From: Sarea resinae
Lineage: Eukaryota
DNA: 64,000 nucleotides
Assembly: GCA_026026165.1 (NCBI GenBank)
Contig: JAPEUD010000040.1
Span: 1 to 64,000 of the forward strand
Reading direction: 5' to 3'
Below, piece by piece: positions 1 to 15,156 of this stretch. Numbering within the stretch: the first letter of the stretch is position 1; each line of letters opens with the position of its first letter. A program made the translations under genes and the position numbers. The notes below the pieces were generated by a model. The model was not told the DNA's origin and ran no database searches. It saw only the letters and a list, made by a program, of their open reading frames with translations.

Positions 1-123
1 CCCTAACCCTAACCCTAACCCTAACCCTAACCCTAACCCTAACCCTAACCCTAACCCTAACCCTAACCCTAACCCTAACCCTAACCCTAACCCTAACCCT
101 AACCCTAACCCTAACCCTAACCC
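1..123. repeat. Telomeric repeat (CCCTAA)n, chromosome end
   Basis: 20 perfect CCCTAA units plus CCC starting at base 1; canonical TTAGGG telomere of filamentous ascomycetes. Confidence 0.99.
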
Positions 124-1955
124 TTGATGACAGAAGTGATGAAGTTGATGAGAAATAGCACTTCTCCTTATGTAGAAGAAAGTTGCTGATGATGTAGGTG
201 GTAAGTTTGAATTGCATGGCGGAACCAGGCACGCAAGATTCAGGCGGAAGGTACGTACCTTATTGAACAGTCAATAACATTCACCGCAAGGTACGTACCT
301 TATTGACCAGCCAATAACACTGACCGAGGTACGTACCTTACAGTGAATGTTTACCTTAATATCACACAGGTCTACTACTCAATTCAACCTTACCACCTAT
401 ATCATCAGCAACCTTCTCCTATAGCAGGAGGATTGCTCTCTCTTATCAACTTTGTCACTTCTGTCATTAAACTAACAAGACTTAATAAACTTTATCACTT
501 CTATCATTAGCATCATTAAGATTTCTCTCTTAGTGCTCTTTAAGTTTTTAGGTTAAGGTGAGTTTAAGAACTACTGCTTAGTAGTAACACATTTAGGTAA
601 CATTTGAGACTGCAAAGGCACGCAGCTAATTCTTCCTAAATACAGACAACTCTCTAGATTCTTTCTTTAATATCAGCTATAGATTCTCCTTCAGCACTCT
701 CTACACTACACTCTCACTCTCTTAACATAATCATAGTCACTTATACAGTAATTTATGCTTTCCTACCTCTACTAGTAACACTTAATAGTAACATTTTACT
801 AGACAATAGCTTGTACTAACTGTACTACCTGCAAGACTGTCCCTAGTACTAGTAGGAAAGGAAAAGGAAAAGGCAAGGGAATGTCTGCTGCTAAGGCTTA
901 TCGTGTTACTAGTGGCAAATCCCTACGCAAGAACTTAGCTAGTATAGCAGCACGCAAAGGTCGTCTTGCTACTAGATAACGCTTCACTACTAGCACATAT
1001 GCTTAACGCTAAAAGGCCTACAAAGATGCTATAAAATCATAGGTTTGTAAGGATACTGCATTTCGTGGTTGTAGTGAGGTTTATAGTGTGCCTAAACTAA
1101 TCCAACCCTGTCGCACTTGTCTAGGCAGTAAGTCTTAGTCTCTAAACTCTAAGGGTAACACATTATAGTAACATTTTAACACTACAGCATCTGCACTCTG
1201 TGAAATCAAGAGATTGCAAAAGTCTTTTGATTTAGTCATTCTAAAGCTCCCTTTCTAGCGCCTGGTCCGCGAGGTTACATCTTATCACTACTACCTCTCT
1301 AGAGAGCTCTGTTTCTAGTTATCAGCTATGCATGCCTTATAAGAAGCCACTGAGGCTTTTATAGTTAGGTTCTTTAAAAGTGAGTTTTTCTATCTTGTCT
1401 TCTATCCTATACTTATTATTTCTAGATGTGCTTTAGGCCTGCATTTATCAGAACTGTGTGACTATCAATCACAAAGACACTTAGTTTATTAAGGCCTTAA
1501 TAAAGGGCTTTAGTATCTAGATCTCTAGTAACATATAGGTCAAGTTTCTATAGCATTAGCTCTAAGGTTTTACTAGTCCTAGTAGTGCAATTAGGGATGC
1601 AATTAGAGATGCAGTCAGGGATGCAATTAGGGCTTTTCTAGTCTTCTAGTCTAGTTTTTCTCTGCCTTTTAGCATTTTCACTCTCTACTTTACTTAGTCT
1701 ACAATAAAGACTTAATAGACTTAGTAACACATATAGGTAACATTCCTAGAGTAATAGCGGCTTTTTAATGCTCTATAAAACATGCCCTGCAATCTATGCT
1801 ATTTTAGCCACTATTTTCATGTCATGTGACAGGTACCTAGGCCTACCTACTAGGTCCTATTAGGCAGGTTGATTAGGGCATAGGTACCTAATACCTATGC
1901 CTAGGCAGGTTCTTCTACCCCTACCCGCCTAGTAGGTACCTAAGTAGACAGCCTA
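124..1955 (-). mobile_element. Telomere-truncated inverted copy of the H3-carrying hAT transposon (left 1,832 bp only)
   Basis: Reverse complement of 5093-6924 (matched positions sum to 7048 at both ends). TIR ACCTAAGTAGACAGCCTA at 1938-1955. The differences I checked between copies are C/T or G/A transitions. Confidence 0.95.
806..1520 (+). pseudogene. Histone H3-like gene, RIP-inactivated (copy 1), 3 exons
   Basis: Exons 806-1127, 1188-1379 and 1426-~1520; introns gtaagt..ctacag (1128-1187) and gtgagt..ttctag (1380-1425). Literal translation includes ALCEIKRLQKS, KLPF*RLVRE, LCF*LSAMHAL*EATEAF and NCVTINHKDT, matching the H3 histone fold after reversing C>T/G>A changes. 3' end approximate. 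Confidence 0.9.
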
Positions 1956-4900
1956 AGTAGAAAGTAGCTCTAACTAAAGCCTAGCAACTTAGAAAGGTTA
2001 AGCAAGCTAGAGTAGTACTAACTATAGAAGATAATTTATTAAGTAGTATAGAAAGGCAACTACCTAAGGGTTAGAGAGTTAGAGGTCAAGCTATATAGTA
2101 TAAGATATAATCTTTTACTACTATTATATAGGCTTAATCTTACTCTCTAGAGACCTAACTATAACTGTATACTTTCTACTAGCTAGGCTAGCTAATTAGC
2201 AATATATACACACTAGGTAGTTAGTATACACCTCTTTAGAGTTTTACTAGCCTAGCTAGCTAAATAGCTAGCAAGTAAAGCAAGTGCAATATCTAAAGAG
2301 TCTTATCTTCTTAGACTATCTAGAAGTTTAATTATTAAATAGCTGTATTATTAAGGATTGTAACTAGTAATACAGTTAGAGTGCTTACTACTATAGCCTA
2401 CTTAGAGGTGCTACTAGAGGTTACCTAGGGCGCGCTTAATTAGTCTGTTAGTAGCGCTTCTATAGTAGGGCCTAACTCTAAGTAGGTAGAAAAAAAGTAG
2501 CTATACTACTATTAGTTACCTAGAGGTTGTATAATGCAAGTAGAGTTACTTAAAGAGAGAGAGAGAGAGAGCGCACTTGCTTAGTAGCTAGGTCGCTTGC
2601 TTAGTCAGTCGCTTAGTCGCGATACAGTTAGAGTATAAGTTAAAAGTAGCTCTAACTACTATTAAGCGACTCTAAAGAGGTTTAGCAAGCTAGAACAGTA
2701 TTAATAGTAAGAGATAATTAATTAAGTTATATAGAAAGGTAGCTTTCTAGAGGTTAGAGGTTAGGCTAGCAGTATTAGAAGGCGATTTCAATAGTTTTCT
2801 AGCTTGCTTAATCCTACTACCTTAATCCTGCTATGCTTTTTCGTTCTGCTAGCTAGGCTAGCTAATTATAAGGTAAGTAGTTAGAGTATATACTTAGTAT
2901 ATCTCTTTAATCCTAGCAGGATTACAGCCTGCAATACAGTTAGGAATATTTATTTAAGAAGTTATTTAAATACATAGCATCCTAGATTTAATAGTCTTAG
3001 ACTATAGATTGCTGTTTACCTCTTAATTCTAGACTTCTTTCTACTTTTACCTATAAGTTTAGTAAGACCTTAGTATAGCGTTCTACTTGTAAATAGATAG
3101 ACAAACTAAACAATAAAATTAAATATTAGAAGCATACCTTTAAGCGTTTATAAATAGAGCATAGGATAATTAGGCCTAATTACTCTTACTTACTAAATTT
3201 ACATATAATAATTCTAAATATTTAGCGACTAAAATAACTCTCTTTATAGCAACAAATAAGAGACACCTGCAAATAGAATTCTAAATGCAAAACCACCTAT
3301 ATAAATCAGCAATAGAGACAGCCTATACTGCTAAAATAAATAACATATATAAACACTTAAAACAAAGAATAAAAAAGGTTAACAAATAGTACACTAAATA
3401 ATACAACAAAGGTTACAAATTATACAAATACAAACTAGGTAAATATATTTAGCTAGATATATAAAACATATAGATATAACAACTAGCTATAAAATTACAA
3501 GCAAGGCAAATAGGACTATATATTATTACTAAGAAAATTAGCAAACAGGCTTATAAACTACAGTTACTTAAATAGTTCTAAATCTATAATGTCTTTAATA
3601 TATAACTGCTTAAACTATATATAAGTAGACTAAACTAGAATTATACAGATAAATAGCAGTAGAATAAAGAAGATACTGCTAACTCTAACAAACTATTTAA
3701 CATTAAAGCTATACTAAATAGCTGCATTTAAAAAAACATCTTAGAATACTAAGTAAAATAGCTTAATTACTCTAAATAAAAAAGCATATAAAAAGAGGCT
3801 AGAAGTGTAAACTACCTTAAAGAACTACTCTATAAATTTCACTATAAACACTCTATAAAAGCATTAAAATCTATAAACCTAAGACAAATAAAAAAACCTA
3901 GTTAAGCCTAACTACCTATATAAAAGAAGAAAAACAGGAACAAACTATATAAAGAAGTAACTACTAGCGTGTATACTAATAGAGAATTAACTTTACATTA
4001 TAATTAATCTAATAAACCCTAGCCTAGTGCTTAACAAATATAAGGTTAGTGTGTATATCTTACACAAACTTAATAAGATTATAAACATTGTCTTACACTA
4101 TATTAATAGCGCTCTAAACAATCTCTAACTTAACTTAGGCAGCTAACTAATCCTAAACAATCTGCTTATAAAGGCTCTTAATCTTATCTCTTAAAAGCCT
4201 AATTTTAGCAAACAGCTATAAGTTGTTATAACTTATATAGTAATTTGCACTAGTAATAGAATTAGTAACAAGCACAACTAAACTATATAGAGAAGAGGTG
4301 TAAGATAAAGAGTTAGATAATATAAGAGATAAAAAAGACAGATCCTATAAAAAGAGCAGAGGTAAACTAGTAAGACTTAACTATAGTAGTAAAGCTGTAA
4401 AAACCCTAGGAGAATTAGGTAGAGGCAACTAAGGCGAATCACTAGCAGGCAAATACAGTAGTAATAATAATAAAGAAAACAATCTAACTATAATAGCTAA
4501 TAGCCTATTAGTAAAGCGCTAACTAATAAGTAGATTGTTTAGATCTAAGTTAATATAATTTAGACTAAAAGAGTCTAGCAAAGGCACTAGCACACTACAC
4601 CTACTACTTATAACAATTAATAAAGCTATATAAAAAAAGAAAGTAAGAAAAACATATAGAGAAAATAAGAGATACTTAAATAGGCTAACTTAGAAACAAA
4701 ACAAGCAAATAAACAGATCCTAGCTATAATAACAGAAAAAAGAAAGAGAACTTATAATCTACACTACCTAAGAACAACTTAGCCTATAGCTATACACTAG
4801 GCGAATTTAAACAAAGAGAGCAATAAATATAACAAGCTAAATAGTAAAGCAATAGACTAGAAAGTAAAGAGTCTAAATCTATATTGCTATAGCAACTAGT

Positions 4901-5092
4901 ATAAACATAACTATAAATAAGCCTAAGCAACAATAAAATATCTAATAAACTAGTCACTTACTATTTAGACTTCTAACTAGTTTAGATAATTAGCTAGTTT
5001 AGTGTAATAAGGAGCGCAACTATAGGACTAGGTGTAGAAAGAGCAGTAAGAATAGCAAGTAGTATAATAATAGTAGAGGTAGTAGGTAAAGC
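1956..5092 (+). mobile_element. RIP-degraded Ty3/Gypsy (chromovirus) LTR retrotransposon relic; integrase, GPY/F and chromodomain at ~3050-3870
   Basis: After de-RIP, ~3075-3150 reads like the integrase core motif AFHPQTDGQTERQNQ.LE.YLR; ~3510-3570 reads IGPY.I...IGKQAYKLQLP; ~3695-3800 reads like a chromodomain (F.IEAILDSR..LEY.VKW). Extreme TpA enrichment. LTRs not resolved, and flanking parts may belong to other repeats. Confidence 0.75.
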
Positions 5093-5110
5093 TAGGCTGT
5101 CTACTTAGGT
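5085..5110. repeat. Left 8-bp TSD (5085-5092) and left 18-bp TIR (5093-5110)
   Basis: GGTAAAGC followed by TAGGCTGTCTACTTAGGT. Confidence 0.95.
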
Positions 5111-5527
5111 ACCTACTAGGCAGGTAGGGGTAGAAGAACCTGCCTAGGCATAGGTATTAGGTACCTATGCCCTAATCAACCTGCCTGACAGGACCTAGTA
5201 GGTAGGCCTAGGTACCTGTCACGTGACATGAAAATAGTGGCTAAAATAGCATAGATTGCAGGGCATGTTTCATAGAGCATTAAAAAGCCGCTATTACTCT
5301 AGGAATGTTACCTATATGTGTTACTAAGTCTATTAAGTCTTTATTGTAGACTAAGTAAAGTAGAGAGTGAAAATGCTAAAAGGCAGAGAAAAACTAGACT
5401 AGAAGACTAGAAAAGCCCTAATTGCATCCCTGACTGCATCTCTAATTGCATCCCTAATTGCACTACTAGGACTAGTAAAACCTTAGAGCTAATGCTATAG
5501 AAACTTGACCTATATGTTACTAGAGAT

Positions 5528-6242
5528 CTAGATACTAAAGCCCTTTATTAAGGCCTTAATAAACTAAGTGTCTTTGTGATTGATAGTCACACAGTTCTGA
5601 TAAATGCAGGCCTAAAGCACATCTAGAAATAATAAGTATAGGATAGAAGATAAGATAGAAAAACTCACTTTTAAAGAACCTAACTATAAAAGCCTTAGTG
5701 GCTTCTTGCAAGGCATGCATAGCTAATGACTAGAAACAGAGCTCTCTAAGGAGGTAGCAGTGATAAGATGTAACCTCGCGGACCAGGCGCTAGAAAGGGA
5801 GCTTTAGAATGACTAAATCAAAAGACTTTTGCAATCTCTTGATTTCACAGAGTGCAGATGCTGTGGTGTTAAAATGTTACTATAATGTGTTACCCTTAGA
5901 GTTTAGAGACTAAGACTTACTGCCTAGACAAGTGCAACAGGGTTGGATTAGTTTAGGCACACTATAAACCTTACTACAACCACGAAATGCAGTATCCTCA
6001 CGAACCTATGATTTCATAGCATCTTTATAGGCCTTTTAGCGTTAAGCATATGTGCTAGTAGTGAAGCGTTGTCTAGTAGCAAGACGACCTTTGCGTGCTG
6101 CTATGCTAGCTAAGTTCTTGCGTGGGGATTTGCCACTAGTAACACAATAAGCCTTAGCAGCAGACATTCCCTTGCCTTTTCCTTTTCCTTTCCTACTAGT
6201 ACTAGAGACAGTCTTGCAGGCGGTACAGTTAGTACAAGCTAT
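5528..6242 (-). pseudogene. Histone H3-like gene, RIP-inactivated (copy 2, inside the full element)
   Basis: Mirror of 806-1520. Retains ancestral codons lost in copy 1 (ACC GCC = T-A of TARK; TTG CAA = L-Q of ALQEA), which supports the de-RIP reading. Confidence 0.9.
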
Positions 6243-6523
6243 TGTCTAGTAAAATGTTACTATTAAGTGTTACTAGTAGAGGTAGGAAAGCATAAATTAC
6301 TGTATAAGTGACTATAATTATGTTAAGAGAGTGAGAGTGTAGTGTAGAGAGTGCTGAAGGAGAATCTGTAGCTGATATTAAAGAAAGAATCTAGAGAGTT
6401 GTCTGTATTTAGGAAGAATTAGCTGCGTGCCTTTGCAGTCTCAAATGTTACCTAAATGTGTTACTACTAAGCAGTAGTTCTTAAACTCACCTTAACCTAA
6501 AAACTCAAAGAGCACTAAGAGAG

Positions 6524-6938
6524 AAATCTTGATGATGCTAATAACAGAAGTGATAAAGTTCATTAAGTCTTGTCAGTTTAATAACAGAAGTGACAAAGTT
6601 AATAAGAGAGAGCAATCCTCCTGCTATAGGAGAAGGTTGCTAATAATGTAGGTGGTAAGGTTGAATTAAGTAGTAGACCTATGTGATATTAAGGTAAACA
6701 TTCACTGTAAGGTATATACCTTAGTCAGTGTTATTAGCTGGTCAATAAGGTACGTACCTTGCAGTGAATGTTATTGACTGTTTAATAAGGTACGTACCTT
6801 CCGCCTGAATCTTGCGTGCCTAGTTCTGCTATGCAATTCAAACTTACTACCTATATTATCAGCAACTTTCTTCTACATAAGGAGAAGTGCTATTTCTTAT
6901 CAACTTTATCACTTCTGTTATTAATATCATTAAGATTT
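6524..6938. promoter_or_regulatory. Imperfect palindrome enclosing ~40-bp tandem units with AAGGTACGTACCTT palindromes; probable bidirectional promoter between the H3-like gene and cargo gene 2
   Basis: 91-bp inverted arms at 6578-6668 and 6834-6924 (124-214 and 380-470 in copy 1). Palindromes at 248-261, 288-301 and 327-338 in copy 1. Promoter role inferred from position only. Confidence 0.55.
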
Positions 6939-6996
6939 CATTAATTTCATTAATCCTATCAACTTCCTAACTGTTTAGGCAGTAGAAAGTGATAAG

Positions 6997-8807
6997 ATAG
7001 CTGGCTAATTACTCTCTAAATCACTTACATCCTCTATAAGCTCCTCTTAGGACAAGGTAGCTATAGAGAATACTGTTATTATAAAGAAGAGGTGAGTTTT
7101 AAACCTCTAAGTGAGATAACAATGAGGTGAAACTGACTTCTTCCTAGAAACTATAGTCTAAGGGCTTAGACTTAAGGGTAACACATTTAGGTAACATTAG
7201 TACTACAAAAGGCTTATATTAGTGCAGAAAACGCTAAAAGCTTAAGAAAGCTAAATCAACTACAACTGATCTAAATCTAGGGCTAGAAAAACACAAAGAC
7301 AATAGCTAACTGCGTATAGATCTTAACAATAGTATTAACAACTCTATATATAGAAGCAACAATTAGAAAGGAAGTGATTATGAGCAGACAGCTAGTGAGG
7401 CTAGGTAACACATTTAGGTAACACTTTTTCTCTCTAAATATCTGCTGACAGTGCTACTATAGTGATAAGAGCAGTGATAAGGTAGAAATAGTGTCTGTAG
7501 CAAAGAAGACAAAGGCAAAGTTCTTACACAAGGTTAGAAACAAATATAAGAAGCAGAAGCAGTAACACATTTCAGTAACAATTCTAAACACAGAGCTAAT
7601 AAAGCAATAGGACTATATCTTAGGCACAGAAGAAAAAGAGGACTGACCTTAATGATAAGGTAGAGAGCTCAGACTCACCTGCTCTAAGAAAGAGACAGCC
7701 TAAGAGAGCATTTGACACAGAGATAGCTAGCCTAGTAGAACGTGTAAAAGCCTGCCTACAAAGACGTTATGCTAGTGAGTTAAGGCCTAGGATAGTTCCC
7801 TACAGCAAACAACAACAGATTGCTAGAGCGCAGCTTAAAGAGGCAAAGTCTAAAGCATTAGAGTTAGAGCTAGATAGCAAACTCAGCGATACTAAGTTTA
7901 AGAAGACACTGAAAAAAGCAGATAGAGCAGATAGGAAAGCAAAATCCACTCTAAGAGGCAAACTCTGTCGCGAGAATAGTTATGCTAGTATAACAGCAGC
8001 ATAACAGCAAGACTTTAAGGAGACTGTTATAGACCCTAAAATAGACAAACTAATAGAACGCCGCTTTTTCCTCTACTAGTCTGCTAAGTGGGTTACTATA
8101 CAGCAGCAAAAGGCTATTAAGGCAGAGAAAGCAAAGGCTAAGGACAACAAGCAGACAGTTAAGGATGTTGTTAATATCTTGCTACTTAAAGACAATAGAG
8201 ATAGCTAACCTAATAGTGGTGCTAATCCTAAGGTAACACTTTTAGGTAACATTTCTTTGCAGCATCTGTCTAATTAGTTTAGCAAGGACAAAATTCAGAT
8301 GAGCCTAACTTGTTATTTAGAGCATAGGGCAAACGCATTAGAAGTCGCTTGCTAAAAGTGGTTCGCCGCTATAAGAGAGACATCTACCGCTATAGCTATA
8401 ATGATCTAGTAGAAGCTAGTGATCTCTATCTAACAGAAGCGATGTTAGAGTTTGTAGAGCAGGTTAAGGACCGCGCAACACTCTCTAACAGTGACACAGA
8501 GGCTAGGACTGATTTTGCTAGGTTTAGCAATTTAGAAGCAGAAGTGTTTCTATTATCTAATAAGGATATTGACCTAATCTCAAGTGATAAGGAAGACTTT
8601 GTGCTGCTGACTATAGGAGAGAAAACTCAGCTAGAGGACATTTCTAAAGGAGAGGACTCTGCTATTGCTAGGTCTGCTATAGAGAAGGCTCTGCTAACAA
8701 CAGCTAAGAATGTTCCTATCAATGCAGAGAGGAGTAAGGATGACTCTGCTAACAATGCTAAAGAGAAGGACTTAAGTTCTAGTGCTGCTAAGGATAGCAA
8801 TAAGTAG
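6997..8807 (+). pseudogene. Cargo gene 2 of the hAT element: multi-intron, charged/acidic protein of unknown family, RIP-inactivated
   Basis: Purine-rich coding-like sequence; intron-like segments starting at 7093 (gtgagt), 7405, 7562 and 8233 (gtaaca) with branch sites and AG ends; residual open 152-aa ORF at 8349-8807; start inferred from ATA (ex-ATG) at 6997. Confidence 0.6.
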
Positions 8808-9191
8808 AGGGCAGTTATAGCCGAGTGGCTTTTCCTTATTAGTCTGTGTCTGCCTAAGGGTAGGTTTTCACTTTTTCTCTAGAATTTAGTTTACTAAAAA
8901 GGTAACACTTACTAGTAACATTGCGTACTTTAATCACGTTAGGAATGCACATTCTCTTAATTAAATTTTAGCTGTATAAACTCTCTGCTATAACTCTAGT
9001 AGACAGCTGTATTGTATTACTCTCTATGTAGTCTCCCTGCTGTGTTTCTTTAGCGATACTAAACCTAGCAACCTTTGATGTCGACATTTAAGCAAATACT
9101 TCTCTAGTTAAGGGCACTTCTAACGTCTTCACTCTGCTGTACGTTCTAAGGCCTTCTGCACTTTCTTATCACTCTAAATTTCTTCTTTACA

Positions 9192-12000
9192 ATGTCTAAT
9201 TCGTTTCAAACATCAGACTATAAGGAACTTAAGGATAGTACACAAAGATCTACAGCTATTGAGTCTAAACCTACAACTATTACTTTAACTTTGATTCACT
9301 ATGTTCTAGAGGTGTTACAAAGGGATCCTACACAGCGAATAGTTATCTAGCAGCAATTATATCATGCTACTTTTATCTTCTAGTAGGAGCAGACCGCCTA
9401 TGCAGATATAGGTCAATATAGAAGCCCTTAATAGGATTCTAGGACGCAGAAAAGCACAACCTAGTCTTTCTTCTACTAAGTTGCTGATGTTGCAACTAGC
9501 TGCCTAGAGATAATGTGTTAGCGATGCAGACGTCAGCAAGAGCATCCTAGTCTTAAGAGGACTAGCACTTCTTTAATGAAACAGCACTATAGCTCTCTAG
9601 AGTGTGCTTAGTCTCTTGCAGCAGGCACAATGCGCACACTTAAGGCTCTTTAGACTATAGTAAGATATCGCTATATGTAATAGATCTCTTAAACTAATAC
9701 CTCTATCCTTGGTGCTAGCAACGTACTTTAGCAATAAAGGCTCTCTAAACCTCAGAGCTATTCTCTTAGTTAAGCTAGCAACGCCTTCTCCTTAAGATAA
9801 TTCTATCAGCAAATCTTCTATAGCGGATTATAGAAAACCACTGGTTCTAACAATGCTTCCTTCTTTGCTAGCTAGGCCTTCGAATTCCAGGGCGACAATA
9901 GGTTTATAATAGCATTTATAATCGATATACAGAGATCTTACTAAGGATCCTACAGAGACTAGGCCTAGAAACTAAAATTTCTATCGCACTAGATGCATAG
10001 CAGAGTCTAAATAAGATCTCCTTTCTTTCTATAATAGGGTATTTCATTGACAAGGACTAGAATTACTAGGAAGTCCTCCTAGGGTTTGAAAAGATAACTA
10101 GAGAGCACTCTAGTCGCAATATAGCTACGTTACTACTTGATCGACTTTAGTGTTTCAATATTTAGGTTTGTCTTTAACCTTTATAGTAACGCTTTTAGGT
10201 AACATTACATTGTAGGATCGCATATTAGCTGTGACAACAGATAACGCAGGCAACAACAACACAATGCGTTAAGAGCTAATAAGCCTACTTGCTAATCACT
10301 ATCAGATTGTATAGGATCATAAGGTTGCTTGTGTGCCTTGCCTTGCGTATGTCATTCAGCTTGCAGTCGTTGCTTTTAATAAGTGCCTAAGAATTACTGC
10401 TTTGAACAAGTCTATACAAGATACCTAGTCAGATGCAGACTAAGAGCTTCTTTAGCAGCTTCCTTCTGAAGACTCCTTTAGCAGCACGCTGCAAAAGGTA
10501 AGTTCTAACAGCCCTTGTCTATTACTACCTCTAAAGTTTCTAGATTCGTGCACTTGCTGTCTATATCGCTGCTTTATCACAGCGAACTGCGCGCTTTTGT
10601 GATCTGCAGCTAACGCTAGTCAATATGATCTAAGATGTTAAAACTCAATAGAACTCAACATATAATATGCTGAAGCAGGCCTAGCAGCTGCGAGATGCCC
10701 TTTAGATGTTTCTTGTTAGTGAAACTAGTCCTGCAATACGTAGAGCTTGTGTCTCTCCTACTAGTTAGGACTATATTCGCTATCTGATTGTCTTACTAAA
10801 GCTATTTAATGATTAGACAAGAGCTATGTCTTAGACTAAAGGCGTAACTATCTACAAGACCTAGTTTGTATACTCTTAGATTTTTAAGCACTTAGAGAAG
10901 CATCTAACTAAGATGCGGCCTAAGCAGACACCCTAGAAACAGGAGCTTACTTCTGCTATAGAAGCAGCAAAGACAAAGCTCTCTAAGTACTACTAAGATA
11001 CTAAAGGCGTACGTAGGAGAATGTTCAATCTAGTATGCATCCTTAATCCCTTAACAAGGCTTAATCTATATAAAGTATGTTACCTAAATCTGTTACTCTT
11101 ACCTTGTCCCCTAGGAATATTTTGCTAATTGCTAAGAAGTCTAATGACTAGGGCCATGAATATTTGCGAAAGTACCGGCGCGAATTTAAGGACTATTATT
11201 AATTGCATTATGCAAGAACTAAAGTTGCCTCCTTAGATGTTGCTGCACTCTCTGTATTAGCATTAGATGTCAATTCACTTGCATAGGCTAAGACGCTTTA
11301 GAAACAATATCGCTCTGTTACAGATCTAGTCTGTTAGTATCTATCTTCGCTAGCTACAGACTACAAAGATCTCTTGCAGGTAACACTTTCAGGTAACATT
11401 TCTGTGTGCAGATGCTGACCTTCTACTAGTTCTAGCGATCACACTACTAGCCCTCGCTTAAACAAATAGCAAAAGACATTCTTGCTATACCTAGAGCTGC
11501 TGTTAGTGTTAAAAGGACTTTCAATAAGGCACAAGACCTTATTACCTTTTGTCGAAGCCGCCTTTCAGCAGAAACCGTTTAGAACACTATAGTTGTGAAG
11601 CACTTTGATCGCGATAAACTCTGCTTACATATAGGTGAAGGTGAATCTAAGAGTATTTCTAAGGACAGTGATTATTAACACACGCTATCAGCTGAATTTA
11701 ATGATTATTTACTTGTTATTAGTGATAATGATAAGCTAATCTTAGTCAATAGTGAGCCTGCGCTACAGGATGATACAGACCTGTATAGGTTTTCTAGTGA
11801 TAAGCACTCTTTACTGCTTCTACCTCTACCTACAGTGCAGCGAGATACACCTGCTCTATAGCAGCAGTCTTTGCTTTAACGCTCTAGGCACGACAATTCT
11901 CAATCTATATTGTCTTAAAGAAAGCGCCCGCGTTCAACTGTGGATGATTTATTTGTCAGGTTAAAGGCACAGAGGTACTCTTCTAGAACTAGTCTATTTC
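9192..12000 (+). pseudogene. hAT transposase (BED-type finger, DDE domain, C-terminal dimerization domain), RIP-inactivated
   Basis: De-RIP motifs: CxxC..H finger at ~9515-9605; IALDAWQS at ~9985; GYFIDKDWNYREVLLGF at ~10040; VTTDNAGNN at 10231; CLAHVIQL at ~10340; DVKTRWNSTY at 10634; AIPG..VSVERTF and RSRLSAETV at ~11485-11580. Ends approximate. Confidence 0.93.
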
Positions 12001-12439
12001 CTTCTTAATTGCGTAAATAACTACACCTGTAGTAGTTCTCTTTGTACGTGCTACAGCATATATTTATCTCTGTTAGAGTAGAGTTAGTTTTAGTAAAACA
12101 TACTAGGTTATAAAGGTTTAGAGGATGATTTAGCGGATTTAATATAGTGCAGAGTATGTAGGACTCTCTAAAGTAAACATATAGAGTATATTGTCATACT
12201 ATTATTCTTATTCTACAACTCTTATAGTCTTATCGCATCTAACCCCTAAATGTTACCTCTATGTGTTACCTTTCAATGATCTTATCTTATCAATCTATCC
12301 CTTATCTTATCAATCAACCTGCATATACCTAGTAGGTAGGCTGTAGGCCCTACAGCCAATTGAGCCTGCCTAAACCCAACCCGATTATGTAATCAGGCGG
12401 GCTAACCCGCCTAAAGCTTAATTTAGGCCGAGTACCTAA

Positions 12440-12465
12440 ACCTAAGTAGACAGCCTAGGTAAAGC
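12440..12465. repeat. Right 18-bp TIR (12440-12457) and right 8-bp TSD (12458-12465)
   Basis: ACCTAAGTAGACAGCCTA followed by GGTAAAGC. Confidence 0.95.
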
Positions 12466-14930
12466 AATAGGTAGTGTAATAATAGCAAGTGTAATAGGCT
12501 AAAAGCAATTACAAACACTTAGCAAACAATACTATAAAGCATATAATAAGAATATATACTAAGACCTTTCTAAGCCTATATTTATTAATAGACTTGCTTT
12601 AAAAGATATATAATAGGTAGTAATTAGTCTTCTATATCTAAAGGCATATAACTATATAATAATAACAAGTGTTACACCTTAGGTTTACTACCTTATAGTC
12701 ACTAGCATTTTAAATAGCCTAAGCCTATATCTTATACTTATTTAACTAATTAGTAATATAAACAAGCATAACTAATATATAAGCTAAATAAGTATAATAA
12801 CTTAAATAATAAGTTATAAAAGAGCTACTAAAGGCCTAACCTTTATAGCCTTTCCTAGATTAAGTTAGAGTAGTAGTAGGTAGTAAAGGCGCAGCAATAA
12901 CTATCTTACTCTAAGAAGCTAGTTTATACTAATAATAAACATTAGCTACTATAGTAACAGATAATATTAGTATAACAATAAGTAAAAACAATATCTAATA
13001 GGTAAAGACTATAAACACTAAATAAACTACTCTAGTTATTACTATAAACAATATAAATAACCTATAATAAGATAACTAAACAAGCTAATTATAATAGCAC
13101 TATAAGAATTATTGCATTAAATATAAAAGAGATAGTAAATAATACACTTACTAGCTAGCTAAATATAGTGCAATATATAAAGGATAAAAACAAAGAGATA
13201 ATATAATAATATAAAGCAACTAAAACAACCTTTAAATTATAGCTTAAGGTTTGTTAATAAGGTAAGAAGACTGTTTATAAGGCTCTACTAATTTATCTAC
13301 TAAGCTAACTAGATATTTACCTCTACTAACACCTAATAAAAACATAAATTATATAATTACAACTAGTTACAAAGTATAAAGAATTAGTATAAACACTAAG
13401 ACAGCTAATATAAGGTTATAAGGTATACTATAGCTAAACCTTATAAATAAGTATAAAACAATTACTGCAATAACTAATAGGTGTATAATATAAAGAAATC
13501 TATATAAGTAAAATATAAAGATATAATTAGTAAATAAGCACAATATAAATAGCTAAAATCTATAGATATATAAGCCTAATTACAAACACAGAACTATAAA
13601 AATAGAAAACACTAATAGAAGGTTATAACCTACTTAACACTGTCTCCTACGTTATAAAACAAAGGATACTAAAAAGCCTAAATAAGGGAAATAATAAGGC
13701 GACTACAAACAGCGATCAGTAAAATTCGCTCTAAACTAGAATAAAGAAGTTAAACAAAGGAAAAACTAAGAGCGATCCTAGGTAGTGTAACGCCTAGACC
13801 TACTAATTCTAAAACAAAGAAATAATAATAAAGATAAACATATAAAAAAAACAACTAAAAAGGGCGATAAACAGCAACAGGCTAAATTACTAACAGCTTA
13901 AACAAAGTATACTAAGCAATAAAAATTAGAGATAACTATAAGAGGCACACTAACTAAAGCCTACTAGTGTTAAGAATAAAGAAACACAATAAAGAAATAA
14001 TAAACAAAGAAATAACTAGTATAACTATAAACAGCAATTAGTAAAATTCGCTCTAACTTAGAACAAAGAAGTTAAATAAAAAGAAGATATAAAGACAACT
14101 ACAAGCAGTGAAAACGCTTAGAACCTCTAAAACTACAAACTAAAAGAACAATTATTACTATAAGAACACTAGAACTACCTAACCTATAATAAATATATAA
14201 GTATAAAGCACTTGCCTCTAGCTACAGTCTATAAATAGATACAAAGCTAAATAATAGAAAAACAACAACAATAAACATACAAACCTATAAATAGTACTAG
14301 CGTTATAGACAACACTATATAAAAAAGAGAGAACTATATTAAGAAGTAGGTAACTCTTTACTAAGTATACTAAGTAGTGTTTAAGGCCTACAAACCTTAG
14401 AGGTTTATTAGTTTAAGAGTTTAGTATAACTAGTCTCTTTTTATTTAACTATTTAGGAGTTTAGCACAAACAGCACTCTTTTATCTAGCTGTTTAGCCTT
14501 TAGAGCACTATATATATTCTATCTCTATAAAGTAGCTAGCAAAGTAGTTGCTAATACTATCCTATTATAAATCATTGTTTGTACTCTATTTATAAGTTTA
14601 TAGATTTGTACAAACCTTACGCATATTCTTTGCATGTATAAACTAAGTTAGCCTAGCTACTTACACCTTTAAAGCACTATATATACTCTCTTTCTATAGA
14701 GTAGTTAGTAGAGTAGTTACTAATTCTATATTATTATAAGTTATTTTTTGCCTTTTGTTAAGAAACTAAGTTAGTCTAGCTACTTATTTAAAGGTAAAAG
14801 AAAGCTAGTCTCTTTATTACTACCTATAAAGATTAATTAATATAACTTAGCATAGAAAGAGAAAGAGAGGATAATAGAATAAGGCTCTAACTAAGTCTCT
14901 AACCAAGTCTCTAACTAAGTACACACTCTT
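12466..14930. mobile_element. Heavily RIP-degraded repeat DNA, continuation of the sequence interrupted by the hAT insertion
   Basis: Very AT/TpA-rich; contiguous with 5092 through the TSD; internal diverged direct repeats (~13700-13830 vs ~14020-14140; ~14480-14570 vs ~14645-14740); abrupt switch to normal GC at ~14930. Confidence 0.65.
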
Positions 14931-15156
14931 TATCTACTCGCCGTTCGACCCATTCGATCTCAGTCGATTGTCTTTGATGACCACTGACTACCGCACGTCA
15001 GCTCGACCAGATCATCATCATCACGCCTAATTACGCAACGGCTTTCGCGGCACAGCCTTTGTTTGTACGTCAGAGCTAATGTACTCTGGCTCATCTCGAT
15101 TGGTTAATCTCGAAAAAAAAAACACTCCGATTTCTCCGAAGTCCCTCATCGCAGCT

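Follow-up and report, generated by a model that had tools for sequence, protein, structure and literature searches.

A histone H3-like gene disabled through repeat-induced point mutation in a probable hAT transposon at a fungal chromosome end

How did a histone H3-like gene with an altered and enlarged tail come to lie beside a telomere, twice and in opposite orientations, and what did it encode before it decayed? This question is raised by the first kilobases of the 64,000-nucleotide stretch analysed here (contig JAPEUD010000040.1 of GenBank assembly GCA_026026165.1, positions 1 to 64,000 of the forward strand), hereafter called the window. We consider it likely that the loci at 806-1520 and 5528-6242 are cargo genes of a hAT transposon, disabled through repeat-induced point mutation (RIP). 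The transposon would be complete at 5093-12457, with an inverted second copy cut short by the telomere, and its cargo would share an ancestor with H3L, the H3-like gene of a hAT element in Pyrenophora tritici-repentis; the same name is used here. Transposons of the hAT type with H3-like genes are already known from P. tritici-repentis (2013) and from Mycosphaerellaceae (2019). New are one more member, which is diverged and probably comes from a host outside the Dothideomycetes and hence from a new host class; a gene structure matching, by eye, that of the intact Pyrenophora H3L, which favours one long-lived transposon gene over repeated accidental captures; and a conserved double motif in the introns of the element.

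The gene consists of three exons and two short introns. Its parts in copy 1, and the locus of copy 2, are:
806-1127, plus strand: H3L exon 1, the N-terminal tail (ATA start from ATG, N4, K9, G-K-rich insert, K14, K18, I23, K27, 42-codon insert, I36)
1128-1187, plus strand: H3L intron 1, 60 nt, interrupting the Thr45 codon in phase 1 (GTAAGT..CAG; double motif at 1155-1175)
1188-1379, plus strand: H3L exon 2, covering the histone fold from alpha-N to alpha-2 (loop 1 with three extra residues and no K79)
1380-1425, plus strand: H3L intron 2, 46 nt, interrupting the Asp106 codon in phase 1 (GTGAGT..TAG)
1426-1520, plus strand: H3L exon 3, comprising the last part of alpha-2, then alpha-3 and a C-terminus that diverges (stop codon TAG, 1518-1520)
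5528-6242, minus strand: H3L gene of copy 2 (exons 5921-6242, 5669-5860 and 5528-5622)

In a translation of 781-1560 the H3-like reading is spread over two frames. Both copies match the Pfam family PF00125 (Histone), with E-values of 2.9e-11 and 3.2e-11 and a score of 44 bits where the cut-off is 26.4, and 164 distinct PDB sequences match H3L at E<=1e-5, the 60 listed being labelled H3, H3 variant or Cse4. A tblastn search of the whole window revealed just two H3-like loci, both within element copies. When the two copies were merged with C or G preferred, the protein string given by an earlier, sequence-only reading of this DNA was reproduced. Once obvious C>T changes are undone, most helix residues in contact with H4 and DNA are retained (R49, K64-L-P-F67, R69, R72, R83, R116-V-T-I119 and K122-D123).

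Both copies are RIP-inactivated pseudogenes without present function. Copy 1 has nine internal stops and copy 2 has seven, all of them TAA or TAG, and the start codon reads ATA. As only 21 of 611 coding bases differ between the copies, and seven internal stops as well as the ATA start are common to both, the two are not independent witnesses but one lineage seen twice. The beginning of the window is a fungal chromosome end built of RIP-mutated repeats: GC content is 0.25-0.40 in the first 15 kb versus 0.46-0.62 in the remaining window, and the indices TpA/ApT and (CpA+TpG)/(ApC+GpT) are 1.68-1.99 and 0.47-0.93 there versus 0.65 and 1.22 in 15001-64000. The element itself has a TpA/ApT of 1.68-1.73.

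The claim that the H3 gene belongs to a transposon was borne out, as it lies between the terminal inverted repeats (TIRs) of a hAT element with the following parts:
1-123, no strand: telomere repeat (CCCTAA)n, ~20 units (repeat family D1), directly abutting the shortened transposon copy
124-1955, plus strand: copy 1 of the hAT-H3L element, H3L-bearing end only, cut by the telomere at 124, true terminus at 1955
5085-5092, no strand: left target-site duplication GGTAAAGC, 8 bp
5093-12457, plus strand: copy 2, the complete hAT-H3L element, 7365 bp, with 18-bp TIRs at 5093-5110 and 12440-12457
11439-11600, plus strand: hAT C-terminal dimerisation domain, within the degraded transposase gene (Pfam PF05699, E 2e-4)
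12458-12465, no strand: right target-site duplication GGTAAAGC, 8 bp

The TIR TAGGCTGTCTACTTAGGT at 5093-5110 matches the reverse complement of 12440-12457 in 18 of 18 bases. Because these 18 bp recur inverted at the far end, 1955 and 5093 are the true termini of the element; the terminal 25-mer is present at 1931-1955 and at 5093-5117. The 5' end, TAGGC, agrees in four of five bases with the YARNG rule for such ends. Copy 1 and the corresponding part of copy 2 form an inverted repeat (124-1955 and 5093-6924) of 1832 nt with 60 differences, all of which are transitions and 46 of which stand in a CpA/TpG context. This repeat stops at 124 only because the telomere begins there. Within the element, H3L lies on the minus strand near the left terminus and points outward; a central open reading frame (ORF) and the transposase gene follow on the plus strand. 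The PF05699 match was obtained in one of three frames with 21.5 bits against a cut-off of 21.4, i.e. it is marginal because of RIP, and the degraded transposase gene would span roughly 8900-11950. No further Pfam family, be it the RNase-H-like core, BED or DUF659, was found at E<=0.01 in the three plus-strand frames of 8800-12400, where the gene is heavily RIPped. It is the TIRs, the GGTAAAGC flanks and the dimerisation domain that identify 5093-12457 as a complete hAT element and 124-1955 as the end of a second, inverted copy.

The family is large. In the public sequencing run X1, 2063 contig pieces lie on the element at a likeness of at least 80% (572 at >=99%, 567 at 95-99%, 689 at 90-95% and 235 below 90%), and runs X2 and X3 gave no such pieces. 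Among the family copies of run X1 there are 787 variable places, made up of 258 C>T, 232 G>A, 102 A>G and 74 T>C changes and 121 transversions. Four of the 40 variable places listed fall in H3L (5999, 6002, 6015 and 6134), each of them C>T or G>A.

Is this gene a relative of the Pyrenophora H3L or an independent capture? All comparisons with Pyrenophora H3L were made by eye from the papers' supplements (Manning Table S10 and Figure S3, and the Ptr_cons text), and for all three sources cited here the statements refer to the sections available. Manning 2013 (PMC3538342) describes H3L as an H3-like gene with tail insertions in a P. tritici-repentis hAT element and as "neither" H3 nor CenH3; it is present in 26 nearly identical copies, among which 13 changes are silent, 3 are missense and 2 are frameshifts, and expressed sequence tags exist. 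This suggests that H3L as such is under purifying selection in Pyrenophora, with the proviso that the copies have a common ancestry and the changes are thus not independent. The gene structures agree closely. In Pyrenophora H3L, intron 1 falls between the first and second bases of the Thr45 codon (...GGC A / CT GTC...) and intron 2 between those of the Asp106 codon (...GAG G / AC TGC...); in the window we find GGC A / CA TCT and AAA A / AT GTG, i.e. the same sites and the same phase. In both genes the tail insert sits immediately behind K9-(T)-V, and the sequence then continues with V-T-G-G-K. The two share K52, F58, H78, T96 and F99, which stand in place of the R, T, F, S and Y of canonical H3, and both have lost M120-P121 and the I-R-G-E-R-A end. 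In Ptr_cons, too, H3L is located at one end and points outward while the other genes run in the opposite direction, and seven of the first nine TIR bases are identical between the two elements.

There are also clear differences. The Pyrenophora gene is intact and expressed, and it keeps K4, V35-K36-K37, K79 and a loop 1 of normal length, whereas H3L of the window is RIP-dead and has N4, I23, I36, a second insert of 42 codons and three additional residues in loop 1. Such a divergent lysine pattern would suit a history in which the hAT lineage of the window captured host H3 once, independently of Pyrenophora, and the captured gene drifted without function, so that the changes in tail, inserts and loop were degeneration followed by RIP. 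The published reading, a transduplication of a housekeeping gene with Pyrenophora as a separate case (Dhillon 2019, PMC6710886, available sections), is of this kind, and transversions are indeed common among the listed change-places of the family. However, such a neutral passenger should hardly have both introns, the site of the tail insert, five derived residues and the gene order in common with Pyrenophora H3L; the excess of silent over missense changes in the Pyrenophora copies and the retention of the residues touching H4 and DNA do not fit it either. We thus regard independent capture and drift as improbable.

The altered tail calls for an explanation. Reading the codons directly gave AAC (N4) at 818-820, AAG (K9) at 833-835, ATA (K23 position) at 944-946, AAA (K27) at 956-958, ATC (K36 position) at 1100-1102 and TAG at 1256-1258, the Q68 position, where it is compatible with CAG. 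In phmmer the H3L tail from V-T-S-G-K to A-A-R-K-G-R is aligned to H3 residues 10-33, which supports the assignment of K14, K18, I for K23, and K27; the K36 position was assigned by a right-anchored alignment by eye. The sequence-only reading was accurate in these respects: N4 and the Ile codons at the K23 and K36 equivalents are as it reported, the equivalents of K9, K14, K18, K27 and K56 are kept, and the run GKGKGKGKG is present in exon 1 (codons AGG AAA GGA AAA GGA AAA GGC AAG GGA). The large tail insert comprises 42 codons (965-1090) with four stops in copy 1 and three in copy 2, all TAA or TAG. An intron inside this insert was ruled out by reading the sequence, as there is no GT..AG pair that keeps the frame. 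Compared with the near-invariant tail of canonical H3, the protein thus has N4, I23 and I36 in place of lysines and two inserts. H3L is an H3 variant and not canonical H3. The idea that it could be a novel nucleosome variant holds in so far as it matches an H3L that is neither H3 nor CenH3; novelty cannot be claimed, since variants of this kind were known from the available part of Manning 2013.

It is important to note that RIP cannot remove a lysine, because neither AAA nor AAG contains a C and G>A only turns AAG into AAA. Therefore, RIP does not account for the missing K4, K23, K36 and K79; for N4 it had been stated from the sequence that RIP could not derive its codon from one for lysine. 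Conversely, none of the kept codons for K9, K14, K18, K27 and K56 is preceded by T, so none looks like a TpG>TpA product. The changes in tail and loop would hence either predate RIP or have arisen by ordinary mutation; an ordinary mutation in a dead copy is a possible source of the lost lysines, 121 of the 787 change-places of the family being transversions.

Lysine-to-isoleucine changes bring to mind oncohistones, as H3 K36M/I inhibits SET-domain enzymes. The sequence-only reading considered a decoy or inhibitor for silencing enzymes. Could selection have turned H3L into a decoy, or a dominant inhibitor, of enzymes that mark chromatin, with Ile at K36 and K23, with K4, K36 and K79 removed, and with A-R-K kept at K9 and K27? 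Neither ATC at 1100-1102 nor ATA at 944-946 can be reached from a lysine codon by RIP, ATC does not stand in a typical RIP context, and A-R-K is indeed kept at both sites. However, ATA may come from ATG by RIP, the G-G-V-K-K-P context of K36 is altered as well with only P38 remaining, both copies in the window are dead and not independent, and the intact Pyrenophora relative keeps K4, K36 and K79. A dedicated decoy would therefore be very unlikely. From the same Pyrenophora lysines it follows that the loss of active marks is specific to the lineage of the window and not part of the design of the family; this loss may be adaptive or may be drift.

Loop 1 invites another comparison. Against H3.3 the phmmer alignment shows a three-residue gap, against a PDB chain named Cse4 it shows none, and the loop contains no Lys, in agreement with the earlier description of a loop 1 that is three residues longer and devoid of K79. 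If H3L derived from host CenH3 instead of H3, a loop of CenH3 length would be expected, and the best PDB match is in fact the gapless Cse4-named chain with 52.5 bits versus 50.9 for H3.3. This difference in score is trivial, though, and the chain also has an H3-type tail (domain 1). The tail of H3L begins with A-R-T and aligns with H3 residues 10-33, the Q68 position has TAG (from CAG) and F84 is kept, loop 1 of Pyrenophora H3L has the normal length, and the gene resides in a multi-copy transposon (2063 contig pieces in run X1) and not at a single host locus. That the loop is CenH3-like in length while Q68 and F84 are H3-like had been recognised before, and a CenH3 origin can hardly be maintained.

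The following scenario would account for the locus. H3L would be a cargo gene of an element of the hAT superfamily, the complete copy of which inserted with an 8-bp target duplication, and the inverted second copy would have lost its far end when a telomere capped the chromosome at base 124. The H3L genes of the window and of Pyrenophora would descend from a single transposon-borne gene, for which the evidence, gathered by eye, is good though informal. N4, I23, I36, both inserts and the extended loop 1 lacking K79 would predate RIP or reflect ordinary mutation. Ancestral H3L would have been a histone-fold protein that paired with H4 and entered nucleosomes to the benefit of the element, rather than a dedicated enzyme decoy, since there is a hint of selection in Pyrenophora and the fold residues contacting H4 and DNA are mostly kept.

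Further support for a relationship may come from a motif in the element. The double motif GTAACACATTTAGGTAACATT (GTAACAC-N6-GTAACAT, 13-nt spacing) has 14 sites at <=3 mismatches, with 0 expected in 100 shuffles, and 17 sites at <=5 mismatches, all within 1-12300:
584-604, plus strand: double motif, with further sites starting at 775, 1155, 1724, 5304, 5873, 6253, 6444, 7178, 7405, 7562, 8233, 8902, 10186, 11076, 11380 and 12249

Of the 13 sites in the complete element, 11 are oriented as the neighbouring gene is, and most sites are inside intron-like GT..AG units. They occur in H3L intron 1, in a 56-nt GT..AG unit just 5' of the ATG and in the presumed intron of the central ORF (8167-8327, according to the protein P0153 described below). 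The Pyrenophora hAT-H3L element has a counterpart, TTATCACAG, which differs from the GTAACAC found here and which likewise occurs twice at a distance of 13 nt, in H3L intron 1, 5' of the ATG and elsewhere; further Pyrenophora sites often abut GTAAGT. In the 45-kb consensus file of Dhillon all 12 matches of this 8-mer fall in Ptr_cons. The motif is not described in the available text of Manning 2013, which uses the word "intron" once, nor in that of Dhillon 2019. The only exact match in metagenome data (contig L001, 804-824) was on a bacterial-looking, coding contig of 1370 bp and was taken as chance. Splicing control, a protein-binding site and intron multiplication are open candidate roles of the motif. 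The 56-nt unit directly 5' of the H3L start (746-803) is 74% identical to intron 1 (1126-1187; repeat family D8). This resemblance suggests an intron in the 5' untranslated region that may be paralogous to intron 1 and is reminiscent of introner-like multiplication.

The second gene of the element has the following position:
7723-8804, plus strand: central ORF (exons 7723-8166 and 8328-8804 according to the P0153 model), with a basic N half and an acidic C half

Its longest stop-free runs are 126 and 159 codons, and it is far less damaged than the neighbouring genes of the element. Searching with the second of these stretches, we found P0153, a hypothetical protein of 307 aa labelled as belonging to a metagenome-assembled genome of Sarea resinae (Sareomycetes). 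When P0153 was compared with the window by tblastn, identities of 85% (7723-8166) and 81% (8328-8804) were obtained. The differences from P0153 to the window are, by eye, mostly of the RIP type (M>I, R>C, H>Y, E>K, D>N and Q>stop), and P0153 appears to be a nearly un-RIPped copy of the central ORF from elsewhere. On the basis of this single label, the hAT-H3L element of the window is probably located outside the Dothideomycetes. The net charge of P0153 is +11 in the N half and -18 in the C half. No Pfam family was found for the central ORF in three frames, nor for P0153 in precomputed annotation. Whether the product of the central ORF served H3L as a histone-chaperone-like partner can only be guessed.

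Several observations weigh against the proposed ancestry and the hAT-H3L assignment. The transposase has a single line of support, the dimerisation-domain match at the Pfam threshold. P0153 finds only itself (one match among 5293 candidates), i.e. this search gave no other relative of the central ORF. The relationship with Pyrenophora H3L was judged by eye alone, and N4 rests on two copies of common ancestry. No intact H3L of the family was recovered: HMMER gave 2105 matches at E<=1e-3, and the best 150 of these 2105 include no close relative. The top matches are concatenated canonical H3; the G-K run is missing from all of the best 150 and from protein P0002, and in none of these is the match to the tail better than E 2e-4 (15.4 bits). 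A word-index protein search with the RIPped H3L yielded one match among 47 candidates, a CENP-A-like protein of no relevance. In its available part, Dhillon 2019 treats the Pyrenophora event as independent and reports no nucleotide similarity between families. The shared intron positions could stem from host H3 introns at the same sites; a host H3 intron at codon 45 is hinted at by the fact that most of the Dhillon copies match only the third exon (71-100 residues). According to the available part of bioRxiv 10.1101/2025.11.13.688278, hAT-1_Ptr is a 2.6-kb element with 17-bp TIRs and a 6-bp target-site duplication, as opposed to 8 bp here, and the 5.6-kb Pyrenophora form is hAT-1_Ptr in which another hAT is nested. 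Finally, four probes (TIR core and 9-mer motif) had 0 matches in seven published consensus sequences (the 45-kb file), a search in which a probe interrupted by a line break might escape notice. Even so, we still favour a RIP-killed H3L gene in a hAT element with an ancestor in common with Pyrenophora H3L.

A much bolder interpretation, which goes beyond what the sequences establish and which we would not wager on, is that H3L is an old, selected transposon gene. It would have persisted within a single hAT lineage across two or more classes of Pezizomycotina (Dothideomycetes and, by one label, Sareomycetes), together with a basic/acidic partner protein, possibly a chaperone, and an intron double motif that controls expression. 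Its tail (N4, I36, no K79, and a G-K-rich insert whose end, A-K-A-(H)-R-V, recalls the H4 tail) would, in the lineage of the window, have been reshaped in such a way that free H3L or nucleosomes alter the marking of element chromatin by the host. If H3L was a selected transposon gene, a mobile element would have supplied its own nucleosome subunit.

Some features of the chromosome end itself deserve mention. The blocks beside the complete element (1956-5092 and 12466-15000) show stronger RIP, with GC 0.27-0.29 and a CpA index of 0.47-0.49, and they have weak direct repeats in common that are ~9.36 kb apart (repeat families D11 and D12). At base 124 the telomere repeat meets the outer edge of a 347-bp foldback within the hAT-H3L element; the arms 124-214 and 380-470 are 84% complementary, the foldback region of this copy lies within 1-470 of the window, and the mirror unit is at 6578-6924. 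Apparently, the chromosome end was healed inside a transposon copy, possibly at a hairpin-prone site.

How does the element compare with known systems? On elements of this sort we found only Manning 2013, Dhillon 2019 and bioRxiv 10.1101/2025.11.13.688278, and our literature search returned nothing on H3L function. The hAT elements that the available sections of Dhillon 2019 report from six Mycosphaerellaceae have 18-20-bp TIRs, 8-bp target-site duplications and hundreds of RIP-killed H3-like copies, attributed to the capture of an intronless retrocopy ~100 million years ago. They resemble the element of the window in being high-copy hAT elements with TIRs and duplications of such lengths, in their restriction to AT-rich RIPped blocks and in the premature stops of every H3-like copy. 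However, they carry one or two intronless H3 copies per 9.5-kb element, whereas here a single copy with two introns is found per 7.4-kb element, and the termini differ from the Mycosphaerellaceae consensus termini. CenH3/Cse4 likewise has a loop 1 three residues longer than that of H3, but the H3L gene of the window combines this loop with an H3-type tail and H3-like Q68 and F84, and it is multi-copy and transposon-borne. As in transduplication of the Pack-MULE type, referred to in the available part of Manning 2013, a gene of cellular type is carried and multiplied between TIRs. Unlike in that type, what is carried here is an entire gene, introns included, which in relatives from distant fungi stands beside the transposase. 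A complete, intron-bearing cargo in such distant relatives suggests a resident gene of the transposon and not a chance fragment.

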